Part shown: piece by piece, positions 1,440 through 23,009 of the stretch | How the letters are laid out: the number at the start of each line of letters is the position of its first letter | How positions within the stretch are numbered: position 1 is the stretch's first letter | Assembly (NCBI GenBank): GCA_016201185.1 | Contig: JACQDG010000156.1 | Location: forward strand, 1-39,174 | From: Acidobacteriota bacterium | GTDB taxonomy: Bacteria; Acidobacteriota; Terriglobia; Bryobacterales; JACQDG01 | Direction: 5' to 3' | Length of the DNA: 39,174 nt | Notes under the pieces: generated by a model | What the model saw: the letters and a program-made list of their open reading frames with translations, nothing else | Told to the model about the DNA's origin: nothing | Database searches by the model: none | Position numbers and translations under genes: made by a program

Positions 1440-2165
1440 ATGGCAAGCGCAAAAAAGAGCAACGAACATCCCGATTCGAAGCGAACACTGGCAGTTGACA
1501 TAGGCGGCACAGGCATCAAGGTTATGGTTTTGGATGAAAACGGGAGACCGCTGACGGAGCGGTCCCGGGTGGGGACTCCCCAGCCGGCCACTCCGAGCGC
1601 GGTGCTCGGAGCTATCGTAGGCTTAGTCAAGAAGCAGGACGCCTTCAGCCGCGCCTCCGTCGGGTTTCCGGGCGTTGTCCGCAACGGCATCACGGAAACG
1701 GCGCCCAACCTGAATCCGGCGTGGAAGGGTTTTAATTTGGCTCAAACGCTCTCCAGGCGACTGGGCAAGCCGGTGAGAGTGGCCAATGACGCAGACGTGC
1801 AAGGGTTCGGAGCCATCACCGGGCGCGGCGTCGAACTGGTGGTTACCCTGGGAACCGGTCTCGGTTCGGCGCTTTTTGTCAATGGCCGGCTCGTACCCAA
1901 TTTGGAAGTAGCCCATCATGCCTTTCGAAAAGGCAAAACCTACGAGGAGAATCTGGGCAACGCCGCGTTGAAAAAGGCCGGGAAAAAGAAATGGAACAAG
2001 ACGCTGCGCCGGGCCATTTTAGAGCTCGAGCGCCTGTTTAACTACGACTTCCTGTTCATCGGCGGCGGCAATGCGAAGAAGATCGCTGGCGGGCTGCCGA
2101 CCAACGTCAAAGTTGTTTCGAACGTCGCCGGGCTGCTGGGCGGAATCGCTTTGTGGCGCGACTAG
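1440..2165 (+). CDS. ppgK: ROK-family glucokinase, polyphosphate-glucokinase-like
   Basis: [16 protein letters not shown] (ATPase phosphate-1 motif), [27 protein letters not shown] and FIGGGNAKK match the ROK/PPGK layout. It lacks the Zn-Cys motif of classic ROK repressors. It lies between gnd and zwf. Confidence 0.65.
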
Positions 2166-2221
2166 GCACCCGCCGGCCGCTGCAAAGGACAATCATTGGA
2201 AGGGAAGATACGCAAGGGGGA

Positions 2222-3718: not shown

Positions 3719-4379
3719 CGATCTGGGAGGGCCAGCGGTGCGGGTCGTAAGGCTCATGCAGCACGGTGTGAATGATCGGGGCTTTCTCGCCGCCAGCCGT
3801 GAAAAACAGGATCTGACGCGCGGCCAGCAAGACGCCTGGCAGCAGGGTGATGCGCCAGGTGGTCAGCTTTGCTACGTGGACCGCGGCGGCGATACCGGAC
3901 CTGTCATCCACCAGAGCTTCGCCCGGGAACAAACTGGCGGTATGGCCGTCGGCGCCGAGGCCCAGGTGCAAGACGTCGAAAGAAGGCAGCGTGCCCTCAG
4001 TCAGCCTGAAAAACTGGCGGATATTTTCCGTGTACTGCTGGGCCGCCGACTCAGCGGGCAGTTCAGCCCGGATGCGATGGATCTGGCCCTCAGGGATGCG
4101 TGCCGGGCCGAGAAGCGCTTCCTGGGCGAGCCGGTAATTGCTATCGGAGTGTGCCGGAGGAACCACGCGCTCGTCCACCCAAAAGACATGGACGCCGTCC
4201 CAGCGAAAGGGGGAAGCCGCGAGCCTGGCGAAAAGAACCTGCGGCGTGGTCCCGCCGGAAAGAGCCAGCGTGGCGAAACCCCGGTCCTTTCGCGCCTCTT
4301 CCAACCGCCCGATCACATATTGAGCGGCGGCTTCGGCGGCAGTTTCCAGATCGGGCCGCTCATGCCATTGAATCGCCAT
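3669..4379 (-). CDS. pgl: 6-phosphogluconolactonase
   Basis: [49 protein letters not shown] and FFTAGGEKA are classic DevB/Pgl motifs. I chose the start at [12 protein letters not shown]. The C-terminus (...VAWFLGGPR) looks a few residues short and ends inside the NadE-like fragment. Confidence 0.8.
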
Positions 4380-4583
4380 TTGCTGAAAATCTGCGCCGGC
4401 CGCGTGCACTTGTCGGCGGCCCTTTAGGATAATATCCCTGGGCAACGGCAGGTTCAAGAACCAATTTCTTGCAGAAATATCAGCGAGCGAGATGATTCAG
4501 GAGGAGTTCAGGAACTTGCTCGCGGCTCCGGATGCCAGCAGCCACGAGCTTTGAACGCTTCCAATGAGAATCCGGGCCTCATA

Positions 4584-4609
4584 TCATGGAAACTGTTCAT
4601 GGAAACTGT
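4584..4609. repeat. Perfect 13-bp tandem direct repeat (TCATGGAAACTGT x2) in the pgl / outer-membrane-protein intergenic region
   Basis: Read directly from the sequence: 4584..4596 is identical to 4597..4609. The repeat lies about 97 nt upstream of the TTG start at 4706. Confidence 0.9.
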
Positions 4610-4705
4610 ACTTGCCCGGGCACACTAAGCTGTGGTAGTTTTTCGCCGACATTCGTCGGCTGGCTTTGAAAGAGCTCTCATGGGACGGCGTGCGTTGGAG
4701 GTCTC

Positions 4706-6850
4706 TTGGTTCGAAAGCTGAACGCGGCGTCTCCGCTGCTGGCGTTGTCGCTCTGGATTCCTGGCGCCAGGGTGAGTGCCACAATCACTCAGGCGGGCGC
4801 TCAGAGTCCTCCCGCTTTTGTGCAACGCATTCCGCGGCAGGCCGCGGCGGCCACGGCCGCCATACAAGGCATCGTGCGGAATGAGGATCGTCTGGGCCTG
4901 GGCGGTGTGACGGTCATTCTCCGGGATGTTTCTGGCGGCCAGAGTTTTCAGGCGAACACTACCGGCGACGGCGTCTTCCGCCTGCTCAACTTGCCCGCAG
5001 GCCGCTATGAGATGACCGCTCGGCGGGAAGGGTTCGAGCCCTTTGAGCGAGCGGACATTCCGCTCGCGGCGGGCGACGTTTTCACCTTAGATATGAGTTT
5101 GAAAATGATTCCCGCCGCTGGTCCCATGCGCCTGCGCGAGCTGCCGCGATGGCCGGACCTCGGCCCCTTACCGCCTCCGCCTGCGGCTGCTCCAGCGTCT
5201 CCGTATCACACGCTTACCTGGGCTCCTGCCCCAGGACCTGCCGGCGAGCCGCCACAAGCCTTGCCGCCGGACGACAAGGTCTTTGCTCGCGTGCCAGATC
5301 GCTGGACCTACCAATGGCCAATCTACCGCCGCTACTCCGAGAGTGGCGAGTACCCCTGGACGGTCGGCCACTGGTACGACCCCTTTAGCCGCCACAAGCT
5401 CAAGGGAGACTACCCCCTGTTTGGAAGAACCTTTCTGAACATAACCGGCACCAGCGACACCTTCGTCGATGGCCGACGCCTGCCTACCCCGAGCAACGTC
5501 GGCGCGGAGCGTCCCGGGAGCAAAGAGTTTTTCGGGCGGTCCGGCCAGTTCTTCACCAGTGAAAACCTGAGCTTTTCATTTGATCTCTTCCACGGCGACA
5601 CCTCTTTTCGCCCGATTGACTGGCGCTTCAGGGTAACACCGGAGGTAAACATCAACTACTTCAACGTCAAGGAGAGAGGCATTGTCAACGCCGATGTAAG
5701 GAAAGGGACGACTCGCACCGACGCCCACCTCGGGCTGCAGGAAGCGTTCTTCGAAGTCAAGCTGCACGACCTGAGCCATGACTATGACTTCGTCTCAGCG
5801 CGCGCCGGCATCCAGCCCTTTACCAGCGATTTCCGGGGGTTCATATTCTCCGATCAGGAGCCCGGTTTCCGGCTGTTCGGCAACCTACGTTCCAACCGCT
5901 ACCAGTACAACGCGGCTTATTTTTCCATGCTGGAGAAGGATACGAACAGCGGCCTGAATACCCTGCAGAGCCGCAACCAGCAAGTATTCATTGCAAATCT
6001 TTACCGGCAGGACTTTATCAAGCTGGGTTACACCATCCAGGCCAGCTTTCACTACGACAAGGACGATCCATCCTTTCAACTCGACAACAACAACTTCCTG
6101 GTTCGGCCCGCCCCGATCGGCAACGTGAGAGAGCACAGCATCCGGGCGTATTACCTGGGCGTGGCCGGGGATGGGCATATCGGCCGGATCAACGTCAGTC
6201 ACGCTTTCTATCAGGTCTTAGGCCACGATAAATTCAACCTCATCGCCGGAAGACGTGTGGACATCAATGCGCGCATGGCGGCGCTGGAACTGTCGCGTGA
6301 CAAAGACTGGATGCGGTTCAAGGCGTCATTCTTCTGGGCGTCGGGCGATTCCAACCCCCGCGACGGCCACGCCCACGGGTTTGACGCCATCTTCGACAAC
6401 CCGAATTTTGCCGGAGGTTTTTTCAGTTTCTGGGGCCGGGAGGGAATCCGGCTGACCAGCACCGGGGTCGGTCTGGATGGGTTAAACAGCCTCCTACCGA
6501 GCTTGCGTTCCAGCAAGACACAAGGCCAGGCGAACTTCGTCAATCCCGGGCTGTACCTGTACAATGCGGGGGCGGACCTGGATCTCACGCCCAAGATGCG
6601 CGTCTCCCTCAACGAGAACCTCGTTCGGTTCCACCACACCGCGCCACTGGAACTGCTCCTTTTCCAGAAACCCGTGCACGCCGGAATCGGGTCAGACTCC
6701 AGCATCGGCGCTTCCTATCGCCCGACCTTGTCGGACAACATTATCTTCACCGGCGGCGTCAGTGTTTTCTCTCCGTTCCGGGGCTTCCGGGAAATATATA
6801 CCGGTCAAACGCTGGTCTCGCTTTTCAGCAATATAAGGGTCAGGTTTTAG
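4706..6850 (+). CDS. Outer-membrane beta-barrel protein with an N-terminal carboxypeptidase-regulatory-like (CarboxypepD_reg) domain
   Basis: Signal-peptide-like N-terminus ([15 protein letters not shown]). CarboxypepD_reg-like block [20 protein letters not shown]...[29 protein letters not shown] Pro-rich linker is followed by about 520 aa rich in aromatic, Gly, Asn and Asp residues, ending in ...FSNIRVRF (C-terminal Phe beta-signal). Confidence 0.6.
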
Positions 6851-6870
6851 CAAGGGCAAAACGGCAACTT

Positions 6871-9800
6871 TTGAAAATGTTTGAACTCTTGAAGGGCTCT
6901 GGAACGGCGGCAGGCAGCCGCCATCGTCAACTGGTGCGGTTCGGTTCTCCGGGCCTGGCGGCCGGCCTGTGTCTGCTCTTGTGCCTATTCTTGACGCTTT
7001 CGCCTACTCCCGCCCAGGAAGAGCAGAGGTCGCGGCCATCCGCCGTTTCACGACTCGTCAACGAGACGCAGGCGGAAGCAGACCAAAAGAGCGCCGGTTG
7101 CATCACCTGTCACGTCAAGACGGATGCGCCCACCATGCATACGACTGGAACCGTGCGCCTCGGTTGCGCCGATTGCCATGGCGGGAATGTCGAAGCGCGA
7201 GTCCCGGCCGGAACGGCGCCGGGCTCTGCTGCCTACGAGGAGGCGAAGAAAAAAGCGCATCCGCAGCCCCGCATCCCGAGCCTCTGGAAAGGCTCGGCCA
7301 ATCCAGTGCGCCCCTATACTGGTTGGCTCCAAGAGAGCAAAGAATATATTCAGTTTGTCAATCCCGGTGATCTGCGCGTGGCTGAGCAGACCTGCGGGTC
7401 GGTGGGCTGTCACCCCCAAGAAGTGCGGGCGGTTCGGACCAGCATGATGACGCACGGCGCCATGTTGTGGCAGGCGGCGCTTTACAACAATGGCGGCTTC
7501 CCCTACAAGAATGCCCGGTTTGGCGAGAATTATTCTGCGGACGGTTTACCCCAGCGGATCAGCACCTGGCCGCCGCCGAGCCAGGAGCAAACCAAGAGCA
7601 AGGGCATCCTTCCCCACCTGGATCCGCTTCCTCGCTGGGAGGTTTCCGAGCCCGGCAACGTGCTGCGCGTTTTCGAGCGCGGCGGGGGGCCGCGCCCTGA
7701 GATTGGCAGCCCTAATCCGAAAGAGGATCCCGGCCGGCCCGACGAAAAGTTGAGCGACCGCGGTTTTGGCACGCTGCTGCGGACGGATCCGGTATTTCTC
7801 GGTCTGCAAAAAACACGACTGCTCGACCCGCTGCTTTCGCTTCCCGGCACCAACGACCACCCTGGCGATTATCGCAACAGCGGCTGTTCAGCCTGCCACG
7901 TGATTTACGCCAACGATCGCTCCTCCATCCACTCCGGGTCCTACGCCGTGTACGGCAACCAGGCCAGGAGCGCCGAGGCGGATCCCACTATTCCCCGGAA
8001 TGAATCCGGCCATCCCATCAAGCACGAATTCACTCGCGCCATCCCAACCAGTCAATGCATCGTTTGCCACATCCATCCCGGAACCAATATGGTAGCTACC
8101 TACCTGGGCTACACCTGGTGGGACAACGAGATGGACGGCGAGTTCATGTACCCGAAAAAACAACGTCACCCCACCGACGAAGACAGGTACCGGGCGTGGG
8201 TATCGAATCCGGAGGCAGCCTCGGTGAATGGGCTATGGTCCGACCCCGGCTTTCTGGAGAAAGTTGGCACCCCTGAATTCAACCGGCAGCTCCAGCACAC
8301 CCAGTTTGCCGATTTCCACGGCCACGGCTGGGTGTTCCGCGCCGTTTACAAGAGGGACCGTAAAGGCCGCTTGCTCGACGCCGAAGACCATATCGTCCCG
8401 TTCGGGGACAAGGACAAGTTCCAGAAGGCGGTTCAGCTCCGGGACATCCACCTCGAAAAGGGAATGCACTGCGAGGACTGCCATTTCGCTCAGGATAACC
8501 ACGGCAACGGTAACATTTACGGAGAGACGCGGAACGCTCTCGAAATTGATTGCGTCGATTGCCACGGGACCATCCAGCAGCAAGCTACTCTGCACACGTC
8601 CGGCCCCGCTGCGCCACCGGGCGGCACGGATCTGCAACTGTTGCGCACGCCGTGGGGGCAGCGGCGGTTCTACTGGCAGGACGGTAAGTTGTATCAGCGC
8701 TCCATGGTCGAGAAGGACCGCCTGCCGTGGGAAGTGGTGCAGGCGGTCGATACCATAACCCCCGGCAATCCGCATTACAGCGAAAAATCCCGCCTGGCGA
8801 AAACCATTCTCAAGGACGGCAAGAGCTGGGGAGGCGCGCCGCAGGATGAGTCACAGTTGGCTCACGCGAACAGCAAGATGACCTGCTACGCCTGCCACTC
8901 GTCGTGGACCACCAGTTGCTTCGGGTGCCATCTGCCCATGGCCGCCAACCGCAAGATGCCGATGCTCCACAATGAAGGGCTGACGGCGCGGAATTACACC
9001 ACCTACAACTTTGAGGTCTTGCGCGACGACATTTACATGCTGGGCATTGACGGCACCGTGACCAAGCACCGTATAGCGCCTACGCGCTCCACTTGCGCGG
9101 TGGTGGTGAGCTCCCAGAACGCGAACCGCGGCTGGCTGTACTACATGCAGCAGACGATTTCCGCCGAAGGGTTCAGCGGGTTCGGCTTTAGTCCCTATTA
9201 CCCCCACACCGTGCGCTCCAAAGAAACGAAGAACTGCACGGATTGCCACGTTTCGCAGGCGGGGGACAACAATGCCTGGATGGCGCAGATCCTGATGCAG
9301 GGAACGAATCTTGTGAATTTCATGGGGCGCTACGTTTATGTCGCGATAGGGAATAAGGGGTTTGAGGCGATTTCCGTCGCCGAGCACGATGATCCGCCCG
9401 CCGTGATCGGCAGCGATTTGCAGCGGATCGCCTACCCCGAGAGTTACGAGGAGCATCTCAAACGCCACCGCGAACTCCAGGAAAGCGACCATCATCCGGG
9501 AAACGTTCTGGACGTGCAGTTGCGCGGCGAGTATCTCTACGCCGCACTGGGGGAAGGCGGATTCCGCGTCTATGACGTTGCCAACGTCGACAATAAAGAC
9601 TTCTCGGAAAAGATGGTCACGGCGCCGGTATCTCCGCTGGGACAGCGTTTCTACGTCAAAACCAAGTATGCAGCGGCCATCGCCTCTCCTTCCACACTGG
9701 CCGTCGATCCCCTCCGCACCCGCATCCCGGAAAATGAGGAGCAGCCGATCGCCCTGCTATATGGTTTCCTTTATGTGGCGGACAAGTACGAGGGGCTGGT

Positions 9801-10740
9801 CGTCGTCGGAGATCCAAACCTGAAAAGCAAAAGTCCCGGCGTGCTGACTCTGCTCGACGGAAACCCCGCCAATAACTTTTTGAAGCGGGCCCTGGCGTTC
9901 AACCCCAGCGGAATCCTCAACGGCGCGCGCCGCATCACCATTGGGGGCAATTACGCTTACATTCTCTGCGACCGCGGCCTGGTGGTAGTGAGCCTGGAAA
10001 ATCCTCTGGCTCCCAAGGTCGTTGGCGCGGTGGGAGCGCCGGATCTGGTGGACCCACAGGGCCTGGCGATCCAGTTTCGTTATGCCTTTGTGGTCGACCG
10101 GCAAGGGCTCAAGGTGCTGGATGTAACTTCACTCGAACACCCCCGCGTGGCGCCCGGCGCCTTCGTTCCCTTGCCAGACGCCCGGAACCTCTACGTGGCG
10201 CGCACCTACGCCTACGTGGCCGGGGGCAAGCAAGGACTGGTGATCGTGGATGTCGAGCGTCCGGAGCACCCCTTCCTCGATCAGGCCTTTACGGCCGAGG
10301 GAGAAATCAACGATGCGCGCGATGTGAAAGCCGCCATGACCGCCTCCAGCGCATTTGCTTATGTAGCTGACGGGAAGAACGGCCTGCGTGTGGTTCAATT
10401 GTTTTCTCCCACCGACACCCCCGAATTCCTTGGCTTCAGTCCCCGGCCCAAGCCGAAGCTCATTGCCACGGCCCATACCCGCGGGCCCGCCCTGGCTATC
10501 TCCAAAGGCATCGATCGGGACCGGGCCGTCGATGAAAGTGGAAACCAGTTGACTGTGTTTAACCGGCGCGGGTCACGGCCCTTTAACCGGCAAGAGGGGG
10601 AGCGGCTATACCTGCGCAACGGTCAGCTTTACACGGTGACGAATGACCCGCCGGGGTCACCGGTCCAACTGACGAAGGGCGCGCCGGAAAAACCGATGAA
10701 AGAAGCCAGATCGGATGCGCCTGGTAGAGCCACACGGTAA
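6871..10740 (+). CDS. Multiheme cytochrome c (9 CXXCH plus 1 CX4CH) fused to a C-terminal LVIVD-repeat beta-propeller; secreted or membrane-anchored
   Basis: Hydrophobic N-terminal anchor [16 protein letters not shown]. Heme motifs: CITCH, CADCH, CGSVGCH, CSACH, CIVCH, CEDCH, CVDCH, CYACH, CFGCH and CTDCH (nt 7099..9249). C-terminal repeats: [45 protein letters not shown] and GLRVVQLFS (nt about 9526..10415). The track start is a TTG; an ATG lies two codons later at 6877. Confidence 0.8.
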
Positions 10741-10817
10741 ACACTGGCGTTTTGCCGGCGCTGGGTCGCACGTCTTGGGCAGAAGTCTGGAAGCTTGGCG
10801 GGGAAACGGACCGAATT

Positions 10818-13607: not shown

Positions 13608-15008
13608 TCAGGGTTGAATGGAGGCCCGCCCCGCAGCCGATCCTGGTGAAGGTGATCGCCCGGCCTTGCTCAGAAGTTGCGGGACCGTGAACTTGCCTTT
13701 GACCGGTTTTTCCTGGGTCCAATCGTGGTACAGGTGGCACTCGAAACAGCGGGCCTCGGCGGCTTCAGCCCTGCCAGAGCGATGACATTGCTGGCAAGTG
13801 GCGATCCCTGGCAGCAGCACCTCAGAGGTTTTCTCGCTGGTGGCGGTCTGGACGTGACAGGCCGTGCAAGCCAGCATTTGATGGGCTTGGTGATCAAAGA
13901 TCGCATGGGGAAGCCAGCGCACCGTAATGGCGGACTTGGCTACATCGGGCAGCGACGCGCCGGCCGCAAAGCTGAGCGTGTGGCATTCTTTGCAGGTCTT
14001 CTCCCACAGGAGCAGTTCCGCGTCCTCCACGCGTTGCTCCACCCACTCGGCTGCATTCCGCGGCGCCGGTCGAGGGGGCCGGCCCGGTATCCTCGCTTCG
14101 GCCAAGCTCGGTTTGCGCAACTCTTCGGGATGGGCGGCGATGTACTCGGTAAACTTCTTGACCACGAAGTTGTAAACCACCTTCGGCTCTTTATGGGGTA
14201 CCGGCTCCCGAAATCGCTCGTCGAAATAAAGAGGATGGCAGGCGGAACAACTCTCGCTGTAATGGATGGTCGCCATATAGGCCCTCGCCGATACGCGGGC
14301 CGGTAAGGGCTGGGGCGGCGGCTCGGAAAGAGCCACTGTGGAAAGCTCCGCCTGGCCGAAGGGCCACGGCTCTTTCCCTCCCGGCGGCCGGTGGCAGTCG
14401 GCGCACTGCAACTGCACGGGTCCATGAGGGCCGCGCAGATCTGCTTTGAGGTGTATCTTGTGGTTCAACTTGATCGCGCCCGGGTCGCTGCGGCCGGGGC
14501 GCACCGAAGCGAACTCCGGATGCCCGCCGTTGAATTCCGTGATGTTGGCCGCGAAGCTCGGATGCCCGTCTTTGGTCTGCAAGCTGGCATGGCACCGGGT
14601 ACAAGCCCGGTCACTCGTTTGTGCCAATCGGACGGCGCCCACGTGTTCGACGTGACAGGACCCGCAAGAGGGGGTAAAGACCTGCTTTGCCTGATGGACG
14701 GGGCCGTCGTGGCAGGAGAGGCACGCTTGATCCGTCGCCTTCTTAAGGAAGATGTGGCTGACGTGACAAGCCGCGCAGTTGAGACCAAAGACAGCGTGCG
14801 AATGCGCCACGGGGCCGCCGGTGTAAACGTGCTGGTTGCCGGCGAGCCCCTCCCAACCCAGCCAAACGAGACCCAGGGCGACCAAACCTATGGAGAGAAT
14901 GCGGCGCCAGCGGGGCAGGGGATACAGGCGCTTGAAGTAATCCAGCTGGATGCGCTGTGCAAGTTTCTTTGTAGTCCGCGTTCTTCCCGGCACAGCGCTT
15001 CTCCTCAC
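13608..15008 (-). CDS. Membrane-anchored periplasmic decaheme cytochrome c with c3/c7-like modules
   Basis: N-terminal TM anchor ILSIGLVALGLVWLGW. Ten CXXCH motifs: CAACH, CLSCH, CGSCH, CTRCH, CADCH, CSACH, CKECH, CTACH, CQQCH and CFECH. FDHQAHQMLACTACH resembles the c7/c3 F.H..H....C..CH pattern. The GTG start directly abuts the upstream stop (TGAGTG). Confidence 0.85.
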   Translation of the reverse strand: MRRSAVPGRTRTTKKLAQRIQLDYFKRLYPLPRWRRILSIGLVALGLVWLGWEGLAGNQHVYTGGPVAHSHAVFGLNCAACHVSHIFLKKATDQACLSCHDGPVHQAKQVFTPSCGSCHVEHVGAVRLAQTSDRACTRCHASLQTKDGHPSFAANITEFNGGHPEFASVRPGRSDPGAIKLNHKIHLKADLRGPHGPVQLQCADCHRPPGGKEPWPFGQAELSTVALSEPPPQPLPARVSARAYMATIHYSESCSACHPLYFDERFREPVPHKEPKVVYNFVVKKFTEYIAAHPEELRKPSLAEARIPGRPPRPAPRNAAEWVEQRVEDAELLLWEKTCKECHTLSFAAGASLPDVAKSAITVRWLPHAIFDHQAHQMLACTACHVQTATSEKTSEVLLPGIATCQQCHRSGRAEAAEARCFECHLYHDWTQEKPVKGKFTVPQLLSKAGRSPSPGSAAGRASIQP

Positions 15009-15917
15009 TCAGTACCGCAGCGCGATCACTGCGTGAACTGACGCCAAGACCAAGAGGGCTATCGACAATGGGACATGGACCAGCAGCCACCCGTGCAGCC
15101 AATGGTAGAGACGAATCTGGCGGCTCAACTGGCGCTCTTCCTCCCAGATGTTTCCCAGGTTGTCCACCAGAGGGTGCAGTGGGACGGGCAGGAGCACCCG
15201 CAGCGACTGGAAAACTTCCTCGGCCCGTTGAGGAATGGCAAGCTCGGCGCCCGGCGCGCCCGGGTTCTCCAGGAACGGTCGCATCTTTTGGAGGTAGATT
15301 TCGCGAAAACGCTCCCTGGCTTCCTCCTCCACTTCGACCAGCGTGGCTACCGCCGCAGCCCCCTGCGCCGTGATTCGGTCCGAAACGGCTTGAGTTTGGC
15401 CCGCGCTGATCCCTAAAGGCCCGCAAACGGCGGCTGCCAGTTCGTCGGCTTCCCCTAGCAGTTGTTCGCGTACGTGCGGTATCTCTTCATAGATCGTTTC
15501 CATCGGCGCCTGCACAGTCATCATTTGAGGCAGATAATGCTGGAGCGCGGCGCCCAGCACCCCGCTGGCGATCACAATAAAGAACAGCACCATCAAGACG
15601 GTTGTCAAAGGTCCCCGAAAAGCGAAGCCGCTGTGGAACAGGATCAGAGGCAGGCTGACCAGTCCCAGCCAGAGATGACCCCTCATCCAGGTCTGGGCCC
15701 GGCCAATGCGCCAGACCGGTACTTTCTTGCGCGCTCCTAGCAAGCCGGCATACAACATCAATCCGTAGCCGATAATGCCGTAAGTGATCCCCAGCGTGCT
15801 GCCGCCGCTCGGTCCGCTCGGCGATCGCAGGACGTACGGTATGTAAATAGTGACGCCGGCGACCAGCAGGACCAGGGAGGCAATCATCCAGGGCCGGTGG
15901 GCTCCATCGATTCGCAT
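15009..15917 (-). CDS. Integral membrane protein (about 5 TM) with two H-x13-H pairs; putative di-heme b-type transmembrane electron carrier of unknown family
   Basis: Predicted TM helices at about aa 10-30, 42-62, 80-100, 104-127 and 273-300. H81-x13-H95 (HLWLGLVSLPLILFH) and H281-x13-H295 (HVPLSIALLVLASVH). A soluble helical insert of about 140 aa lies between TM4 and TM5. A GAGG RBS precedes the ATG, 9 nt after the upstream stop. Confidence 0.55.
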   Translation of the reverse strand: MRIDGAHRPWMIASLVLLVAGVTIYIPYVLRSPSGPSGGSTLGITYGIIGYGLMLYAGLLGARKKVPVWRIGRAQTWMRGHLWLGLVSLPLILFHSGFAFRGPLTTVLMVLFFIVIASGVLGAALQHYLPQMMTVQAPMETIYEEIPHVREQLLGEADELAAAVCGPLGISAGQTQAVSDRITAQGAAAVATLVEVEEEARERFREIYLQKMRPFLENPGAPGAELAIPQRAEEVFQSLRVLLPVPLHPLVDNLGNIWEEERQLSRQIRLYHWLHGWLLVHVPLSIALLVLASVHAVIALRY

Positions 15918-15926: not shown

Positions 15927-18089
15927 CTAGCGATCGGCAGACCTCCCCTGCGGCGCCCCCACAAGCCCGCTGAAGAACGTGTTGGGGTCCACCCGGTGAG
16001 CGGCATCGTGCGGGCAAGCGTACACGCAACTGGGTTCTACATGTTCCGTGCAAAGATCGCAGGAAGTAGCTTTTTGCTTGACAACAGCGACCTCTCGCTC
16101 CGGGGCAGCCGGATCCTTCGCATATACGGTGAAGGGGTGCATGTTGATGTTGCCGTACGGACAATTTTTGGCGCACAGGCCGCAGCCGATGCACCAGTCT
16201 TCGATAATTACCTCCAGAGAATTACGACGCCGGATAGAGCCCACCGGACAGCCCACCATACACAGAGGATCGCGACACTGCCGGCAGGAGGTGGCCACCA
16301 GATACTTGTCGAAGCGCACTCCTTCACGGATTAAGCGGGTTACGCCGTCGTGGGCGTCGGCGCAGGCGCGCACGCAGTTGTCACAGCGCGTGCACCGCTC
16401 CAGGTCGAGCACCAGCAAGCTTTGGGCCTCCATCAGGCCCTGGGCCAGAAACCGTTCGAGAGGGACGCTGGACGCGGCCGCGAGACGTTGTCGGTTTTGT
16501 TCCTCGCGCTCTTGGGCCACGGCTTCCAGACTACGCCGGACTTCGGGGAAGGCTAGCGTCATGCGGTGGAAATCTTCGCCATGGATACGGACCACCTCCA
16601 CGTGATCCAGCGCCGTGCAAGTGGCAGTGCGCCGACCCTCGCCTAGCAAACCCATCTCGCCGAAGTAGCCGCCGCGGCCCAGATAGGCCAGCACAAGCTC
16701 CCCTCCGGGGTGTATTTCGGAGACCTTTACAAAGCCGATGCGAACGAGATAGAAGCTGTCGGCTATGTCGCCCTGGCGGCAGATGACATCACCCTTGGAA
16801 TAACGCACCAGCTCCACCCTATCGCGCAGCGAATCGATGAAATCCTGGGTGAGCGTGGCGAATACAGGAACGCTGCGCAAATGGTCGTCGAGAGCGCGCC
16901 GCCGGTAGTTTTCCTCGATCTGCGCTTTGAGCGTCTTGTTCCTTTGCATGATGTCGAGGACGTTGCGCAGCATTTCTAGCATGGTGCAGTCGGTAGCAGC
17001 GCGAACGGTGGCGGAGCGCGGATACAGGCTCATGCAGGTCATTTCGCCGAACAGGTCGCCCGGACCAAGCTCGGCGACGGGATTTTCATAGGGCAGATCC
17101 ACCGGCGCATCAATCGGGATCATGCGGCGGTCCGCTTCTTCCGCGCGGCGATTCTCCCGCCGCCCGGCGAGACGGCTGGTGAGCTTGCTCAAGAAGCCCG
17201 TAGCGCCGCCCTCCGTCTTGACGTGGGCCAGGGGAGCGGAAAGGAACACCTGGGCCTTCCCCTGGAGGATATAGAATGCCGTGGAGCCGTACTCTCCTTC
17301 CCGGCAGACAATGTCTCCTTTCCGGAAGCGGCGAAGGACAATAGCGTTCTTATTCAGATCCAGGAAGGTCCCCGATACCTTCTGGAAGTAAGGCAATTGC
17401 AGCAACTCCTCCACGTTCACCGGCTCGCCTTGGGGCAAGACCGTCTTCACGACACTTTTGTTTGTCAGGGCGCCGGTGGGGCAGGAGACCATGCATTCCC
17501 CGCACGAAACGCAGGAAGAATAGCCCATGGGCTGGTTGTGATCGAAAGCGATGCCGGTCTGGTAACCTTTTCCCCTGCGGCCGAGCACGTCGTTGTGGCG
17601 GATTTCATCGCACCCGCGAATGCAACGATCGCAGAGGATGCAGGCCTCGTGGTCCACGGAGATCACAAAGGAGGTGTCATCCTGCCCGCGGGGCGAGAGG
17701 CGGCGGGCAAACCGCGGCTGGGTGACACCCTCCGTCCTGGCCAACATCTCGAGCTCGCAGTCGCCCGACTGTCGCTGGCGGGCGCAGGGGCTGGGATGGT
17801 CCGTCATCAGCAATTCGACCAGGGTACGGCGCACGTTTCTTACCTTTTCCGAGGTGGTGGAAATCACCATGCCGTTCTCCGCCAGTCGAATGCAAGAGGC
17901 GGCCAAAACACGGCCGCCTACATCCACCGCGCAAACGCGACAGACGCCCACCGGCGCTTCGTTCTGCTGGTGGCAAAGGGTGGGGATGGAGATGCCGTGG
18001 ATGCGGGCCGCATCGAAGATGGTAGTATCGGAAGGGACCGAAATCGGCCGGCCGTCGATGGTCAGTTGAACCTGGCTGTCCGAGCTCAT
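15927..18089 (-). CDS. Multidomain Fe-S protein: HoxU/NuoG-N-terminal-like [2Fe-2S] plus [4Fe-4S] module, two cyclic-nucleotide-binding domains, and a DmsB/HybA-like four-cluster ferredoxin
   Basis: N-terminus: LTIDGRPI...TLCH..(x)..CRVC..(x)..C ([2Fe-2S]), HPSPC...C, CILCDRCIRGC and CVSCGECMVSCP. cNMP domains: FRKGDIVCREGEYGSTAFYILQG...GPGDLFGEM...RSATVRA and YSKGDVICRQGDIADSFYLVRIG...GRGGYFGEMGLL...RTATCTA. C-terminus: CTRCDNCVRAC, CRQCRDPLCMVGCP, CIGCGLCAKNCP and CDLCTEHVEPSCVYACP. I chose the start at MSSDSQVQ, whose ATG overlaps the upstream TGA (ATGA at 18086..18089). No signal or Tat motif is present. Confidence 0.8.
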   Translation of the reverse strand: MSSDSQVQLTIDGRPISVPSDTTIFDAARIHGISIPTLCHQQNEAPVGVCRVCAVDVGGRVLAASCIRLAENGMVISTTSEKVRNVRRTLVELLMTDHPSPCARQRQSGDCELEMLARTEGVTQPRFARRLSPRGQDDTSFVISVDHEACILCDRCIRGCDEIRHNDVLGRRGKGYQTGIAFDHNQPMGYSSCVSCGECMVSCPTGALTNKSVVKTVLPQGEPVNVEELLQLPYFQKVSGTFLDLNKNAIVLRRFRKGDIVCREGEYGSTAFYILQGKAQVFLSAPLAHVKTEGGATGFLSKLTSRLAGRRENRRAEEADRRMIPIDAPVDLPYENPVAELGPGDLFGEMTCMSLYPRSATVRAATDCTMLEMLRNVLDIMQRNKTLKAQIEENYRRRALDDHLRSVPVFATLTQDFIDSLRDRVELVRYSKGDVICRQGDIADSFYLVRIGFVKVSEIHPGGELVLAYLGRGGYFGEMGLLGEGRRTATCTALDHVEVVRIHGEDFHRMTLAFPEVRRSLEAVAQEREEQNRQRLAAASSVPLERFLAQGLMEAQSLLVLDLERCTRCDNCVRACADAHDGVTRLIREGVRFDKYLVATSCRQCRDPLCMVGCPVGSIRRRNSLEVIIEDWCIGCGLCAKNCPYGNINMHPFTVYAKDPAAPEREVAVVKQKATSCDLCTEHVEPSCVYACPHDAAHRVDPNTFFSGLVGAPQGRSADR
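16557..17399 (-). other. Domain region: tandem cyclic-nucleotide-binding (CAP-effector-like) domains embedded between the Fe-S modules
   Basis: Two copies of the beta-roll signature (G.LFGEM / GYFGEMGLL followed by R[ST]ATV/C.A). The first copy carries an insertion of about 50 aa (FLSAPLAHVKTEGG...DLPYENP). Confidence 0.7.
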
Positions 18090-19765
18090 ACCAGCCTCTC
18101 TTCGCGCATGGGGCAGACCCTTTCGGGGCATTCCCGGCGGAGGATATGGGCCTCGACTTCTTTCCGGAAATGCTGCAGCACGGAAGTTATCGGTGCATGG
18201 GCGAATTGCCCCAGACCGCAAATGGAGGTCAGGCGCAGGGCGTCAGAGAGTTCATCCACCAACTGCAGATCAGCCGGTGAGCCTTTGCCTTGCGTCCAGC
18301 CGGTGAGGATGTCCACCAGTTTCTGGGAACCCATGCGGCAAGGTACGCACTTGCCGCAAGACTCGTTGCGGAAGAACTTCACTGCGTTCAAAGCCATGTC
18401 GAGCATACACCTGCCTTCGGCACAGACCACGATGGCACCCGAACCCAGCATGGAGCCGGCCGCGGCCATCGACTTGAAGTCGAGATGGACATCCACCAGG
18501 GAGGCCGGAAGATAGCCTGAAGACGGACCGGAAGGGGCAAAAGCCTTGAGTTGCTTGCCGTCGGGGGGACCGCCGGCGAGATTAAGAATCACCTCCGAGG
18601 CCGGCGTACCCATAGGGATTTCGAATACCCCCGGTTTACGCACATCGCCGCTGACGCCCACCATCTTCAAGCCGGCAGCTCCACCCTGTCCCTGGGTCTT
18701 ATACCATTCCACGCCGTTGGTCAGAATCTGAGGCACGTGGGCGAAGGTCTCGACGTTGTTGAGCACGGTCGGTTTGTTCCAGAGCCCATGGGTGACAGGG
18801 AAGGGCGGTTTGTTGCGGGGTTCGGCGCGCTTGCCTTCGATAGCTTCTAGCAAAGCGCTCTCCTCGCCGCAGATATAACCGCCCGGGCTGACGAAGATTT
18901 CCAGCTCGAAGGGGAGGTCAGACCCGAGCACCTGCAGCCCCAGGATGCCGTCTTGCTTGCATTTGTGAATCTCTTCGTCCAGGATCCTTTCCTGAACGCC
19001 GTACTCATGGCGAATGTAAAGGACACCCTTACGCGCCCCGGCCACCAACCCGGCGATGATCATCCCCTCGATGACGAGGTGGGGCAGGTGGTGCATGATG
19101 AAGCGGTCTTTGATGGTACCGGGCTCGCTCTCGTCAGCGTTGCACACGACGTACTTCTCCGTGCCCGGAGCTTTGCGAACGGCCTCCCACTTGACCCCCG
19201 TGGGAAAGCCAGCGCCTCCCATGCCGCTCAGTCCGCTGGCCTTTAAGGTCGCAATGACGCCGTCCCAGTCCCGGGTCTGGACCAGGCGCCGAAGTGCGCC
19301 GTAACGCGTGGCGCCCTTATAAGGGTCGGAAGCGAGATCCGTCCGCCTGTTTTCCACGGGCTGCTCCGGCAACTCACTGCCTCCCAGGGCGGCGAAGACC
19401 AGAGCCTCGGCCTGGGCCCCGGTGACCCCGCGGTAAATGTGGTCATTGACGGAAATAGCGGGGGCCCCGTCACATTGCCCCAAACAGGAGGTCTCGCGAA
19501 CAGAAACCTCGCTCTCGCCCAACGGCAGGAACCGCTGCTTGAGCTCGGCGCGCAACGGCTCGGCCCCTCTCAGGTGGCAAGACATGTCAGAGCAAACCCG
19601 CAGATTCACCTTGGCCGCAGGCGTCAGATAGAAATGAGGATAAAAGCTTGCCACGCCATGCAGGCGATAGAGGGGGATCTTGGTCTTCTTGGACAGCGCC
19701 TCCAAATGCTCGGCTGGCAGATAACCGTATTGACGCTGAATGGCCCTGAGTTCTTCGAAGATCAC
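18086..19765 (-). CDS. NuoE-NuoF fusion: NAD(P)H-binding FMN/Fe-S diaphorase subunit (HoxEF / NADH dehydrogenase 24-kDa plus 51-kDa type)
   Basis: NuoE-like N-terminus (GVASFYPHF...RVCSDMSCHLRG...CLGQCDGAPA). NuoF motifs GLSGMGGAGFPTGVKW, YVVCNADESEPGT.KDR, ICGEESALLEAIEGKR.EPR.KPPFP and the N3 cluster ESCGKCVPCRMG...CGLG. GTG start, with a possible TTG one codon upstream, after an AGGAG. Confidence 0.85.
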   Translation of the reverse strand: MIFEELRAIQRQYGYLPAEHLEALSKKTKIPLYRLHGVASFYPHFYLTPAAKVNLRVCSDMSCHLRGAEPLRAELKQRFLPLGESEVSVRETSCLGQCDGAPAISVNDHIYRGVTGAQAEALVFAALGGSELPEQPVENRRTDLASDPYKGATRYGALRRLVQTRDWDGVIATLKASGLSGMGGAGFPTGVKWEAVRKAPGTEKYVVCNADESEPGTIKDRFIMHHLPHLVIEGMIIAGLVAGARKGVLYIRHEYGVQERILDEEIHKCKQDGILGLQVLGSDLPFELEIFVSPGGYICGEESALLEAIEGKRAEPRNKPPFPVTHGLWNKPTVLNNVETFAHVPQILTNGVEWYKTQGQGGAAGLKMVGVSGDVRKPGVFEIPMGTPASEVILNLAGGPPDGKQLKAFAPSGPSSGYLPASLVDVHLDFKSMAAAGSMLGSGAIVVCAEGRCMLDMALNAVKFFRNESCGKCVPCRMGSQKLVDILTGWTQGKGSPADLQLVDELSDALRLTSICGLGQFAHAPITSVLQHFRKEVEAHILRRECPERVCPMREERLV

Positions 19766-20007: not shown

Positions 20008-21369
20008 ATGAGCCTGGTTCGCACCAGCTACATTTCACTTCTGGCGGTGTGGGCGGAAAGCGCCGTGGCTTGCCTGCTGATGGGGGGCGGGACTCTGCTT
20101 GCCGCTGAGGCCCCCCAAAGCAGCGCCTTGACATCGGAGGCCTCCAAGTTTACCGGGCCGGGTTCGTGCAGCTCCACCAGTTGCCATGGTGGCGTGCAGC
20201 CCCGGGCGGAAACCTCCGTTCGGCAAAATGAGTACAGCCTCTGGGTAGTGCGGGACAAACATGCCCACGCCTTTGCTGTGCTCTCGAATCCGGTTGGGAC
20301 ACGGATGGCTCGTATTCTGGGGCTGCCTCGGGCAGACACTGCTGAGAAGTGCCTGGCCTGTCACGCCCTGAATCCTCCTCCGGACCAGCGCGCCAAGACC
20401 TTCTCCGACCTCACCGACGGGGTAAGCTGTGAAGCCTGTCATGGGCCGGCGTCCAACTGGCTGGGCCCGCATACCACCCGCGGCTGGGCTTACGAGAAGT
20501 CGCTCCAAGCAGGCATGTACAATACCCGCGACCTGATCAAACGGAGCGAGAAGTGTCTCTCCTGCCATTTGGGCAATGAGGAAAAGTTTGTCGATCACGA
20601 GATGATTGCGGCCGGCCACCCCGACCTGTATTTCGAACTGGACTCCTTTTCGGCGGCGATGCCCCGGCATTGGAAAGAGCCGCTGGACAAGGATCCCTGG
20701 CTGGGGGTGCGAACGTTGGGCACGGGGCAGGCGGTGCAATTGCGGGAGCATCTGAGGCGCGTAGCCCGGCGGGCTCAGGGAAGCATCTGGCCGGAATTCT
20801 CCGAACTGCAATGCTTCGCCTGTCATCATGATTTGACGGCCGCGAAAGACAGTTGGAGGCAGGAACGTGGCTATCCGGGGCGGCGTCCGGGCGACCCGCC
20901 GTTCAATATGTCCCGCTATTCTATTTTCCGTCAGGTGGTTTACGAAGTGGACCGGCAGGAGGGCGGCCAGCTCGATTCCCAGCTCAACAAGCTGTTTGGC
21001 CTGATGAGTGAGCTCTCGGCCGACCGCAAGCAGGTCGTGGCTGCGGCCGAGAGTTCAGCCGAACTGGCTGACCGGCTGGCTCGCCGGATCGCCTCACTGC
21101 AATTCGACCAGGGGATGACCATGCGTTTGCTCAAAAGCATTTCCGGCGACGCTGACTACATCGCAGGGCAAGGTGAGCGGTCGGCCGAGCAGGCAGCCAT
21201 GGCGCTGGATTCTCTTTTCATCGCTTACATCCAGAGCGCGAAAATGGGAAACGAGCAGCAAGTCCGAGCGGCCATTAACTCCCTTTTCCAGGAACTGTCG
21301 AATCCTTCCGCCTATAATGCTTACACTTTCGCCCGTGAGGTGCATAAGTTGAATGCTTTGCTGCCGTAG
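20008..21369 (+). CDS. Secreted multiheme cytochrome c (cytochrome c554-family-like; 4 CXXCH plus 1 CX4CH) with a helical C-terminal domain of unknown function
   Basis: Signal peptide (LLAVWAESAVACLLMGGGTLLAAEA). Heme motifs CSSTSCH, CLACH, CEACH, CLSCH and CFACH. W..RDKHAHAF after the first motif resembles the c554-family layout. The last roughly 170 aa contain no Cys or heme motifs. Confidence 0.7.
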   Translation: MSLVRTSYISLLAVWAESAVACLLMGGGTLLAAEAPQSSALTSEASKFTGPGSCSSTSCHGGVQPRAETSVRQNEYSLWVVRDKHAHAFAVLSNPVGTRMARILGLPRADTAEKCLACHALNPPPDQRAKTFSDLTDGVSCEACHGPASNWLGPHTTRGWAYEKSLQAGMYNTRDLIKRSEKCLSCHLGNEEKFVDHEMIAAGHPDLYFELDSFSAAMPRHWKEPLDKDPWLGVRTLGTGQAVQLREHLRRVARRAQGSIWPEFSELQCFACHHDLTAAKDSWRQERGYPGRRPGDPPFNMSRYSIFRQVVYEVDRQEGGQLDSQLNKLFGLMSELSADRKQVVAAAESSAELADRLARRIASLQFDQGMTMRLLKSISGDADYIAGQGERSAEQAAMALDSLFIAYIQSAKMGNEQQVRAAINSLFQELSNPSAYNAYTFAREVHKLNALLP

Positions 21370-21386: not shown

Positions 21387-23009
21387 ATGCCCAGGGACCA
21401 TAACAAGTCGCGTTCCCGGAGGGCCATCCTGGCGATCCGTAACCTTATCATGCTGGTCTTGGTGGCGGCTGCCTCGCTAATCTGGGGGAACGGCCGCGGG
21501 GCCGACTCCGATCGCGCCATCCCGACCGTGCGCTTCCCACGCGTTCACCACGTCCCGCGAGCCCCCCACTTCAACAATTTCGACCCTCGCCCGATCCTGA
21601 CTGCCGGCGACGTGCAATCCGTTGTTCAACGCGCGGCCGAATCGCTGGATTCCACCGCCATGGTCATCGCCGTGACGGATCGCCAGGGCGACGTCCTGGC
21701 GCTATATCGGAAGCCTGGCGCCCCCCCAACGGCCGTGGGCAACTTCAGCATGATGGTTGACACCAACGAGCTGGCCGTTGCTTTAGCCCGTACGGCGTCG
21801 TTTTTCAGCAACAACCAGGCGCCCCTTTCCACGCGCACGGTTCGTTTCATCAGCGGCATTCATTTCCCTCCCGGGATTCCTTTCACCCCAAACGCGGCCC
21901 TCTACGGTATTGAGAATACCAACCGGGGCTGTCCGGTGAATGCCGATTTCATCCCGGGCCAGGAGGTTCCTCCCGCCCGTACCATCGACAGGACGCGGCC
22001 GGGGCTGGGAATCATTACCGGCAAAGCAGACCTGAACGACAGCGACAGCAACGCGGTGAATCCCGGAGGGGTCCCGCTGTTCAAGCAAGGGCAGTTGGTA
22101 GGCGGGGTCGGGGTTGCCGGCGTCTCTCCTAACCTGGTTGAATATGCCGCGTTTTCCGGCGCGGCCCGTGCGGGATTCGAGCCTTCGCCGGCGCCGCCCG
22201 AAGTGGTGATTATCGACGGTCTCGCCTTGCCTTTCGTCGATCAGAAAGCACAGCCTGCGGGAACAGGACCGGGGGCATTCGATGCCGCAAACTTCCTGAT
22301 CCCCCCGCGCGGCAGTCCCAAGCCGGCTCCGGAGGGCGACCTGGTAGCGCCCAAAGCCGGCCCCTTGGGTGGCCTGACGGCAGAAGAGGTCCGCCACATT
22401 ATTGATGCGGCAGTGGCAACAGCCGATCAGACACGGGGCGTGATCCGGCTGCCGCTGGGCTCGCGCGCTCGGATGGCGATAGCGGTCGCGGATCTGGACG
22501 GTACGATCCTGGCGTTGCACCGGATGCCGGATGCAACCATTTTCAGTATTGATGTGGCGGTGGCCAAGTCACGCAACGTGATTTACTTCAGCAGCGCGCA
22601 GCGCAGGCCGGAGGACCTCCCGGGCGTCCCCATGGGCACGGCGGTCAACAACAGGACCATCAGTTTCGGGGCGCAACCTCTCTTTCCGCCGGGCATTAAC
22701 TTCAGCCAGCCGGGGCCATTTTTTGATCTCTACAAATGGGATACGGCCAATCCTTGTACGCAAGGCTTTCAGGCTCCCAATTCCAACCAAAGCGGAATCG
22801 TATTTTTCCCGGGCAGTCTTCCGCTTTACAGGAATGCGGTGCTGGTGGGCGGGCTGGGCGTCAGCGGCGATGGAGTGGAACAGGACGACTTTGTCACCGC
22901 CGGCGCGGCGCAAGGCCTGGACGCTCCCGAGTCGATCCGGGCGGACCAGATCATAATCCGGGGAGTGCGACTCCCCTACCTGAAATTCCCTCGCAATCCG
23001 ACCCAATGA
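21387..23009 (+). CDS. Membrane-anchored or secreted protein with two tandem GlcG/HbpS-like (DUF336, heme-binding/degrading-like) domains
   Basis: N-terminal anchor AIRNLIMLVLVAAASLIW. Module 1: LTAGDVQSVVQRAAE...MVIAVTDRQGDVLALYR...GGVPLFKQGQLVGGVGVAGV. Module 2: LTAEEVRHIIDAAVA...IAVADLDGTILALHR...IDVAVAKSRN...GSLPLYRNAVLVGGLGVSGDGVEQDD. It starts 18 nt after the cytochrome stop. Confidence 0.6.
   Translation: MPRDHNKSRSRRAILAIRNLIMLVLVAAASLIWGNGRGADSDRAIPTVRFPRVHHVPRAPHFNNFDPRPILTAGDVQSVVQRAAESLDSTAMVIAVTDRQGDVLALYRKPGAPPTAVGNFSMMVDTNELAVALARTASFFSNNQAPLSTRTVRFISGIHFPPGIPFTPNAALYGIENTNRGCPVNADFIPGQEVPPARTIDRTRPGLGIITGKADLNDSDSNAVNPGGVPLFKQGQLVGGVGVAGVSPNLVEYAAFSGAARAGFEPSPAPPEVVIIDGLALPFVDQKAQPAGTGPGAFDAANFLIPPRGSPKPAPEGDLVAPKAGPLGGLTAEEVRHIIDAAVATADQTRGVIRLPLGSRARMAIAVADLDGTILALHRMPDATIFSIDVAVAKSRNVIYFSSAQRRPEDLPGVPMGTAVNNRTISFGAQPLFPPGINFSQPGPFFDLYKWDTANPCTQGFQAPNSNQSGIVFFPGSLPLYRNAVLVGGLGVSGDGVEQDDFVTAGAAQGLDAPESIRADQIIIRGVRLPYLKFPRNPTQ

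Follow-up and report, generated by a model that had tools for sequence, protein, structure and literature searches.

The Acidobacteriota dominate acidic soils and peat, and their respiration without oxygen is most often explained by extracellular electron transfer (EET) to iron or organic matter. A stretch of 39,174 nucleotides from an acidobacterial metagenome-assembled genome (GenBank assembly GCA_016201185.1, contig JACQDG010000156.1, positions 1–39,174 of the forward strand; hereafter, the window) raises the question of what is formed by two adjacent genes, one for an outer-membrane beta-barrel protein and the other for a large fusion of a multihaem cytochrome c and an LVIVD-type beta-propeller. 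An initial annotation, made from the sequence alone, had proposed either a porin–cytochrome module of a different kind from the Mtr, Pio and Pcc types or a surface-displayed redox enzyme whose propeller binds a substrate or mineral. The two genes are as follows (aa, amino acids).

4706..6850, + strand: outer-membrane barrel gene, 714 aa (open reading frame list, translation, Pfam, AlphaFold 2 model and Foldseek)
6871..10740, + strand: decahaem cytochrome c + LVIVD beta-propeller fusion, 1289 aa from TTG 6871 or 1287 aa from ATG 6877

Both open reading frames (ORFs) are present as initially annotated, as seen from the ORF list and the translations. The gap of 20 nucleotides reported between them holds for the ORF that begins at 6871; the deposited fusion protein (1287 aa, locus tag HY236_06340) starts with the ATG at 6877, and the gap to this start is 26 nucleotides.

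Our analysis revealed that the pair is an unnamed module that is widespread in metagenome-assembled genomes (MAGs) of soil and peat Acidobacteriota and is made of parts unrelated to those of known porin–cytochrome systems. As to its function, the reading that we prefer, and that we consider quite possible though short of probable, is a dedicated channel combined with a periplasmic, outer-membrane-proximal terminal reductase that would receive electrons from NAD(P)H through an export chain independent of quinones.

The barrel and the cytochrome form an obligate two-gene module

A survey of species-representative genomes identified at least 577 stretches that match the fusion protein, and the loci described here are the best 80 of these. 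At least 2.3 kb of upstream DNA is available in 70 of the 80 fetched loci, and 53 have full 10-kb flanks. Five distant contexts (L081–L085, among which L082 is a Pseudomonadota locus) were also included. In all of the 70 loci with enough upstream DNA, the gene immediately before the cytochrome gene encodes a barrel homologue and has the same orientation; a barrel homologue also directly precedes the cytochrome gene in four of the five distant lineages (L081, L082, L083 and L085; 30–47% identity). In L084, the cytochrome gene is preceded by a gene for a different repeat protein, at a contig edge. The co-conservation of barrel and cytochrome, on which the initial annotation depended, is thus evident, and the two genes constitute one obligate two-gene module.

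The best 80 loci are all derived from MAGs, mostly labelled Acidobacteriota (Bryobacterales, Terriglobales and Acidiferrales), and the fusion protein is 66–80% identical across these orders among the best 80 of the at least 577 stretches. More than 8000 homologues of the fusion protein were found in a collection of 5.8 billion proteins, the best 120 of which are 71–81% identical and are all named 'hypothetical protein'. When 1.84 billion cluster representatives were searched exhaustively with HMMER, 1672 proteins were obtained at E ≤ 1e-30. Full-length fused relatives reach down to about 40% identity, and proteins of a Pseudomonadota MAG and of a Candidatus Xenobia MAG are among them. The 240 listed homologues and the 80 loci include no cultured host and consist only of MAG or metagenome sequences. 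Full-text literature searches found no description of a multihaem–LVIVD or propeller–cytochrome fusion.

The median identity across the loci is 70.5% for the fusion protein, 63.8% for glucose-6-phosphate dehydrogenase (G6PD) and 53.8% for the barrel protein, and the fusion protein is better conserved than the neighbouring G6PD in all of the 12 paired loci. The cytochrome is therefore the more constrained partner of the pair, and the module, through this partner, is more conserved than a housekeeping enzyme, yet nameless.

Obligate and tightly spaced pairing of a barrel and a cytochrome is also a feature of porin–cytochrome modules, and in this respect it favours another reading, namely a true trans-outer-membrane conduit. 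In such a conduit, the fusion protein or its propeller would lie on the cell surface and insoluble acceptors, such as minerals and particulate organic matter, would be reduced via the barrel, which would make the pair a functional analogue of Mtr/Pcc built from unrelated parts. We regard this alternative as unlikely; the evidence that bears on it from the two proteins and from the linked genes is given with each of them below.

The cytochrome–propeller fusion protein

The fusion protein consists of the following four parts.

6877..7014, + strand: Sec-type signal peptide with a single hydrophobic segment (residues 25–43)
7048..9300, + strand: decahaem domain (residues about 60–810) with nine CXXCH motifs, one CX4CH motif and ten conserved non-motif His residues
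9313..10440, + strand: seven-repeat LVIVD beta-propeller (residues about 815–1190, about 375 aa)
10441..10665, + strand: conserved C-terminal tail (residues 1191–1265, 75 aa)

The nine CXXCH motifs (at residues 77, 99, 339, 396, 534, 561, 672, 683 and 789) and the CX4CH motif (at residue 175) agree in number with the initial annotation and hold 20 of the 24 Cys residues of the protein. The number of CXXCH motifs expected from the composition of the protein is 0.015, and the maximum observed in 20,000 shuffles was two. None of the ten motifs varies among 59 close homologues, and all are kept in 11 distant ones, down to 39% identity. Because the third motif switches between CX4CH and CXXCH among the distant relatives, it represents a real and ordinary haem site, and the same alternation led us to reject the CX4CH motif as a special catalytic haem. 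Cys742 was likewise rejected as a catalytic or haem-ligand residue: it is invariant in Acidobacteriota and replaced by Ser or Ala in distant relatives.

Exactly ten non-motif His residues are also conserved down to 39% identity. These would be enough distal ligands for ten haems that are apparently bis-His-ligated and of the electron-transfer type, as judged from the count and not from a structure. Ten such haems would form a chain of Mtr-like length, which is a point in favour of a conduit. The domain is haem-sparse, however, with only ten haems in about 750 residues, and the fusion protein is far more conserved than is usual for EET cytochromes (compare PMC12977616), which argues against a conduit. 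The signal peptide is of an ordinary type, and no lipobox is present; a possible lipobox was found in only 6 of the 120 close homologues, and its lack in the remaining 114 also speaks against a conduit.

Searches of family and structure databases yielded little for the decahaem domain. Pfam matches are limited to sub-threshold, local ones to c3/c7/c554 cytochromes. The NCBIfam profile ExtM (NF040943) matched with 78.5 bits (E 3e-22) in two local stretches around haems 6–7, but this score is one-tenth of the whole-protein cut-off of 800, and membership in ExtM was therefore rejected. Neither the MtrA/DmsE (TIGR03508) nor the MtrC/OmcA (TIGR03507) profile matched the protein at E ≤ 0.01, and PF22113 reached 8 bits; the lack of a match to an MtrA/DmsE-type insert protein is a further point against a conduit. 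Family-library scans gave no match named for OmbB, OmaB or OmcB, although the reference sequences of these three proteins were not compared. When all PDB chains were searched using phmmer and a 59-sequence profile, the best match (E 0.13) covered one local haem pair. With no significant PDB sequence or profile similarity, identity with NrfA, the octahaem nitrite and tetrathionate reductases, HAO and MccA was rejected. The Pfam, NCBIfam and PDB searches assigned no enzyme family to the fusion protein, so that the check for a known periplasmic enzyme family suggested in the initial annotation had a negative outcome.

The propeller was identified more clearly. The Pfam LVIVD profile (PF08309) matched the fusion protein with 82.8–90.8 bits (cut-off, 20.2), where the score of 90.8 bits corresponds to six stretches, and seven LVIVD repeats were recognized by pattern at residues 821–1176. 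The presence of LVIVD repeats in the C-terminal part thus agrees with the initial annotation, but the length of about 300 aa given there was too short, because the propeller of about 375 aa is followed by the tail of 75 aa. The propeller is the sole region of the AlphaFold 2 (AF2) model of the fusion protein that lies mostly above a predicted local distance difference test score (pLDDT) of 70. Foldseek searches with this model detected only generic propellers, such as AztD, WD40 and BamB, and an alignment of relatives revealed no conserved His/Cys cluster in the propeller for d1 haem, copper or pyrroloquinoline quinone. Residues D902, K909, E957, D971, R1070 and Y1071 are among those that do not vary in the propeller. 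The C-terminal tail is conserved about as well as both domains in relatives down to 37–65% identity and contains invariant residues (R1216, R1218, D1221, G1224, Q1226, R1232 and G1234). The 'choice-of-anchor B' profile TIGR04312 matched the fusion protein weakly.

The barrel protein

The barrel protein can be divided into five parts.

about 4706–4780, + strand: signal peptide
4862–5104, + strand: CarboxypepD_reg domain (Pfam)
5105–5269, + strand: Pro-rich linker
5270–5425, + strand: conserved pre-barrel segment
5426–6847, + strand: barrel of about 18 strands with a terminal Phe

The N-terminal CarboxypepD_reg domain and the C-terminal Phe had been noticed initially and were both recovered. The former (residues 53–133, 58.9 bits) is the sole Pfam match of the protein, which lacks Cys and ends in ...NIRVRF. 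Distant barrel homologues do not contain CarboxypepD_reg, and their alignments begin at residues 189–225, indicating that this domain and the Pro-rich linker are outside the core common to distant lineages. The barrel part itself matched no Pfam family even at E ≤ 10.

The profile- and structure-based classification proposed in the initial annotation was performed. The AF2 model contains about 18 long strands at residues 242–713 (pLDDT 63, predicted template modelling score (pTM) 0.52). In the Foldseek list of PDB matches, AlgE ranks first (E 1e-13, TM-score 0.66 normalised to AlgE), followed by the major outer membrane protein MOMP, chitoporin, OccD/OccK and general porins, while MtrB and TonB-dependent receptors are absent from the top 50 matches. 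The model thus showed the protein to be an outer-membrane barrel in the AlgE/OprD size class, with a predicted number of about 18 strands. Three other identities were rejected: MtrB/PioB, because the MtrB_PioB profile did not match and about 18 rather than about 26 strands are predicted; a TonB-dependent receptor, because no Plug, TonB_dep_Rec or OMP_b-brl_4 match was obtained in Pfam; and a Cyc2-type fused cytochrome–porin, because a haem motif is impossible in a protein without Cys.

A barrel of this predicted size falls far short of the width of MtrB, which has 26 strands and sheathes MtrA, and this weighs against a conduit. To our knowledge, there is no solved structure with a haem wire inside a barrel of about 18 strands, which also counts against it. 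The size of the barrel is that of substrate channels and is too narrow for an MtrA-like insert; together with a cytochrome that is haem-sparse, evolves like an enzyme and normally lacks a lipobox, this favours a periplasmic reductase served by a channel.

Since the alginate exporter AlgE is the closest fold, the barrel could also serve as an AlgE-like exporter of polymers or as a generic channel rather than as a redox partner; the adjacency of the two genes would then result from shared envelope biogenesis or regulation. A GH63 gene, which is located next to the pair in the window and recurs in 21 of the 53 full-flank loci, would be in line with such a role. However, the adjacency is observed in all of the 70 loci and persists across phyla, down to about 30% identity of the barrel, while all other neighbours are shuffled; polysaccharide synthesis genes are not consistently linked, and the Alginate_exp profile did not match the barrel protein at E ≤ 10. 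We consider this explanation very improbable.

The most conserved stretch of the barrel protein (window 6200–6550, residues about 546–615; GDxxPxDGxAxGFDxIFDNPxFAGG...) falls in a low-confidence, non-strand part of the model and may represent a constriction loop, a plug loop or a docking site. The window contains a second CarboxypepD_reg outer-membrane protein at 27753–31001 (+ strand), which is TonB-dependent-receptor-like (Plug and OMP_b-brl_4) and provides an in-window contrast to the barrel protein. A tandem 13-nucleotide direct repeat, CATGGAAACTGT(T/A), is present at 4585–4610, about 100 nucleotides upstream of the barrel gene; it is missing from the divergent promoter region 19765–20008, and a shared operator was thus rejected.

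Electron-transfer genes linked to the module

Six genes located downstream of the pair in the window encode electron-transfer or related proteins.

13608..15008, − strand: membrane-anchored decahaem cytochrome c (466 aa; ten CXXCH motifs and an N-terminal transmembrane (TM) segment)
15009..15917, − strand: candidate FRD/NOX/MsrQ-like dihaem-b membrane protein (302 aa; 4–5 TM segments)
15927..18221, − strand: cytoplasmic Fe-S subunit (HoxU/NuoG-N-like domain, three cNMP-binding domains and a 2x[4Fe-4S] domain)
18086..19765, − strand: NuoE–NuoF fusion, NADH/FMN-binding flavoprotein (TIGR01959, 455 bits)
20008..21369, + strand: secreted c554-like pentahaem cytochrome (four CXXCH motifs and one CX4CH motif)
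21387..23009, + strand: exported HbpS-like protein (540 aa; three matched HbpS/GlcG-like stretches)

The first four of these, the 466-aa decahaem, the 302-aa membrane protein, the Fe-S protein and the NuoE–NuoF fusion (NuoEF), form an operon at 13608–19765 (− strand). The start of the Fe-S subunit is probably the ATG at 18089, which overlaps the stop codon of NuoEF (ATGA). Together with the pentahaem cytochrome and the fusion protein, this operon brings the number of haem c sites in the window to about 25 (10 + 10 + 5), the same figure as was initially given.

The linked genes recur with the module. Of the 53 full-flank loci, 46 contain one or more genes of the decahaem/dihaem-b/Fe-S/NuoEF operon, 33 the 466-aa decahaem (also found in L081, L082 and L084), 43 the c554-like pentahaem (also in L084) and 46 the HbpS-like gene (also in L082). 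Because the orders and orientations of the linked genes vary among the loci, their linkage is attributable to selection rather than to frozen synteny; the connection of the pair to the operon and the pentahaem, which had been suggested on the basis of the window, thus survives rearrangement. In L082, the complete set is found in a single co-directional operon: it begins with the gene for a flavoprotein that also contains cNMP and ferredoxin domains, continues with those for a membrane protein of 298 aa, a multihaem cytochrome and an HbpS-like protein, and ends with the barrel gene and the fusion gene.

The inner-membrane step of this gene set looks new as well. In the 302-aa protein, four His residues are invariant in 42 of 42 homologues. 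They form two pairs (H81/H95 and H281/H295), and the members of each pair are separated by 14 residues in a TM helix. Its family assignment is at the limit of detection: Pfam Ferric_reduct (PF01794) scored 27.6 bits (cut-off, 28) in one distant homologue, the window protein itself yielded only a very weak DUF4405 match (E 1.5), and the other homologues yielded weak matches to DUF4405 or Ni_hydr_CYTB (cytochrome b561). Judging from these sequence features, we regard it as a candidate dihaem-b electron carrier of the NOX/MsrQ-like type. The N-terminus of the 466-aa decahaem is positively charged, and the protein, which has a single TM anchor, scored 23 bits against TIGR03508 (cut-off, 192).

On the cytoplasmic side, the half of the Fe-S subunit that contains the cNMP and ferredoxin domains recurs in L082, L083 and L084. 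The module for NAD(P)H input is NuoEF and a HoxU-like domain in Acidobacteriota but a Pyr_redox_2 flavoprotein in L082 and L083. The cNMP/ferredoxin part is therefore constant while the NAD(P)H-binding module differs between lineages, and the use of two non-homologous input modules on the same downstream chain points to NAD(P)H as the partner. The Pyr_redox_2 flavoproteins are encoded at L082:1117-3513 and L083:4278-8168, and one of the two is fused to three FHA domains. The operon at 13608–19765 looks like a quinone-independent module for the transfer of electrons from NAD(P)H to the periplasm. The HbpS-like protein could function in the handling of haem or another cofactor or in redox sensing.

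The direction of electron flow through these proteins has to be considered. Modules of the NuoEF/HoxU diaphorase type are reversible, and the layout of a periplasmic multihaem cytochrome, a membrane cytochrome b and a cytoplasmic Fe-S protein resembles that of the Tmc/Hmc complexes of sulfate reducers. As in those complexes, electrons could flow inward, so that the fusion protein would oxidise a low-potential periplasmic or extracellular donor and the cytochromes and the dihaem-b protein would reduce cytoplasmic NAD(P)+. Such a flow opposes the membrane potential and needs a donor near or below about −320 mV, and the linked genes include none for a hydrogenase, a formate dehydrogenase or a similar enzyme; these considerations favour outward flow. 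In addition, the adjacent oxidative pentose-phosphate genes suggest that NADPH is supplied rather than required. We thus consider an inward chain improbable.

Genes of the pentose-phosphate pathway flank the system in the window at 447–4457 and 31294–33549 (6-phosphogluconate dehydrogenase, ROK kinase, G6PD, 6-phosphogluconolactonase and a transketolase-like protein), and G6PD adjoins the pair in 12 of the 80 acidobacterial loci. At L083:16058-23714, the genes for phosphoglucose isomerase, transketolase, ribose-5-phosphate isomerase and transaldolase adjoin a cytochrome of only about 40% identity. The adjacency of pentose-phosphate genes may hint at NADPH supply.

A proposed electron-export chain

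Taking these findings together, we propose the following route. Electrons from NAD(P)H would cross the inner membrane via the NOX/MsrQ-like dihaem-b protein without the participation of quinones and would then pass through the anchored decahaem and the pentahaem to the fusion protein, with its ten apparently bis-His-ligated haems. This protein would lie beneath its dedicated barrel, on the periplasmic side, and act as the terminal reductase, with a binding or catalytic site in the propeller. The barrel would admit an acceptor or redox shuttle that ordinary porins exclude; complexed Fe(III), quinone or humic moieties and a polymer end are candidate acceptors. A precedent that favours a periplasmic reductase is found in Geobacter, in which the multihaem reductase ExtKL/MccSep is periplasmic and its substrate is taken up by the porin ExtI (PMC5877670, PMC13510729).

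Two proposals of the initial annotation can be re-evaluated in the light of this scheme. The idea of a redox enzyme with a substrate-binding propeller appears at least as likely as a conduit, but a surface display of this enzyme does not follow, and the periplasmic side of the channel is the more probable location. As for the idea of a porin–cytochrome module, the analogy with the Mtr, Pio and Pcc systems is weakened by the AlgE/OprD-like barrel, the haem-sparse and conserved cytochrome and the ordinary signal peptide.

Several points speak against a periplasmic reductase beneath a channel, and some of them favour a conduit. LVIVD and 'choice-of-anchor B' propellers typically belong to surface proteins. 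Some distant homologues (P0252 and P0257) carry lipoboxes like those of MtrC/OmcA, and a third protein, with ten haems of its own, in addition to two periplasmic cytochromes would fit a longer path that crosses the membrane; the very presence of this upstream chain of periplasmic multihaem cytochromes is in keeping with a conduit. So are the hosts, since EET to organic matter has been proposed for peat and soil Acidobacteriota (bioRxiv 10.64898/2026.05.27.727921). The barrel could also be an anchor, its role as a channel being predicted from sequence and model, and the moderate quality of the model (pLDDT 63, pTM 0.52) makes the strand count approximate. The AF2 model of the fusion protein (mean pLDDT 47.7) is unusable in the haem domain, and both the continuity of the haem chain and the contact between haems and propeller are hence predicted at most. 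The outward direction of electron flow, finally, is proposed on the grounds of thermodynamics and topology.

A broader claim can be made jointly for the pair and its linked genes, which we put forward as a possibility with appreciable doubt. The pair may be the outer terminus of an undescribed class of envelope-spanning electron-export systems, in which NAD(P)H, perhaps provided through the neighbouring pentose-phosphate genes, interchangeable flavo-Fe-S modules, a quinone-free dihaem-b step, about 25 c-type haems and the fusion protein at an AlgE-like barrel lead to an extracellular or imported acceptor. Such a chain would amount to a bacterial 'NADPH oxidase wired to cytochromes', by means of which uncultured Acidobacteriota of soil and peat, as well as a few other phyla, might dispose of reductant or reduce extracellular iron and organic matter.

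Other features of the window

A GH63/MGH1-like glycoside hydrolase of 917 aa without a signal peptide is encoded at 10752–13505 (+ strand). Its ORF starts 11 nucleotides after the cytochrome gene, and the distance from that gene to the likely ATG at 10818 is about 77 nucleotides. In the 21 loci mentioned above, the GH63-like gene lies within 10 kb, and its position is not fixed. An Arg/Gly/Ala-rich ORF of 857 aa at 36516–39089 (− strand) matches no family and looks like an antisense-frame artefact of a + strand gene that runs off the window. Rfam searches revealed no riboswitch or regulatory RNA match anywhere in the window, and scans of the window for promoters and terminators gave counts at the level of shuffled sequences.

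Comparison with known systems

The module shares several features with MtrCAB, PioAB and the Pcc systems of Geobacter. In all of them, a barrel gene adjoins a gene for a decahaem-scale cytochrome, further periplasmic multihaem cytochromes are linked, and the transfer of respiratory electrons to the cell exterior is a plausible role. The parts are different, however: MtrB and PioB are 26-stranded, whereas the barrel described here is AlgE/OprD-like with about 18 predicted strands, and the cytochrome carries a fused propeller, is mostly without a lipobox and is both haem-sparse and highly conserved. The chain would also be fed differently, by NAD(P)H via a dihaem-b protein instead of a quinol dehydrogenase.

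The ExtI/ExtKL (MccSep)/ExtM system of Geobacter is similar in that the gene for a dedicated porin adjoins those for multihaem cytochromes, including a terminal reductase that acts in the periplasm on a substrate admitted by the porin. No named family other than ExtM matched the haem domain significantly, and the ExtM match is local. In contrast to the Ext system, the module has no selenocysteine, rhodanese, Rieske or cytochrome bc-type partner, and the Ext proteins have no propeller.

AlgE (PDB 3rbh) and the OprD/Occ channels, which are 18-stranded and substrate-specific, are the best structural matches to the barrel model. They differ from the barrel protein in sequence (12–13% identity), in the additional CarboxypepD_reg domain and Pro-rich linker of the latter, and in their genomic partners.

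In cytochrome cd1 nitrite reductase, hydrazine synthase and the quinohaemoprotein dehydrogenases, c-type haems feed or drain a catalytic propeller in one enzyme. These enzymes show no sequence or fold match to the fusion protein, and the comparison is a lead only.

The nearest counterpart in phylum and habitats is acidobacterial EET1, which consists of three separate genes encoding an MtrB-like porin, a 6-bladed NHL/DUF5128 propeller and a cytochrome c (bioRxiv 10.64898/2026.05.27.727921). EET1, for which a role in EET is proposed, likewise combines a barrel, a beta-propeller and a multihaem cytochrome in a conserved cluster, but in the module described here the cytochrome and a propeller of seven LVIVD repeats form one protein, and its barrel partner is AlgE-like. 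LVIVD is absent from that 2026 peat preprint and its supplements, which describe two other acidobacterial clusters. Identity with EET1 or EET2 was rejected. An NHL-repeat propeller protein, that is, a propeller of the EET1 type, is encoded in the window at 34167–35237 (− strand), where no cytochrome or porin gene adjoins it.

With regard to the inner-membrane step, the 302-aa protein resembles NOX/MsrQ and Tmc/Hmc in having two His pairs in TM helices, by which electrons from a cytoplasmic flavo/Fe-S donor would reach a periplasmic acceptor without quinones. It differs from these in falling below the Pfam threshold, in containing a 150-residue cytoplasmic insert and in its partners: a cNMP/ferredoxin subunit and multihaem cytochromes take the place of MsrP or a fused FAD/NADPH domain. 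Should the proposed chain operate in this way, it would extend the known means of bacterial electron export by a quinone-independent, NAD(P)H-fed route and would provide a gene marker for that route in peat and soil transcriptomes.

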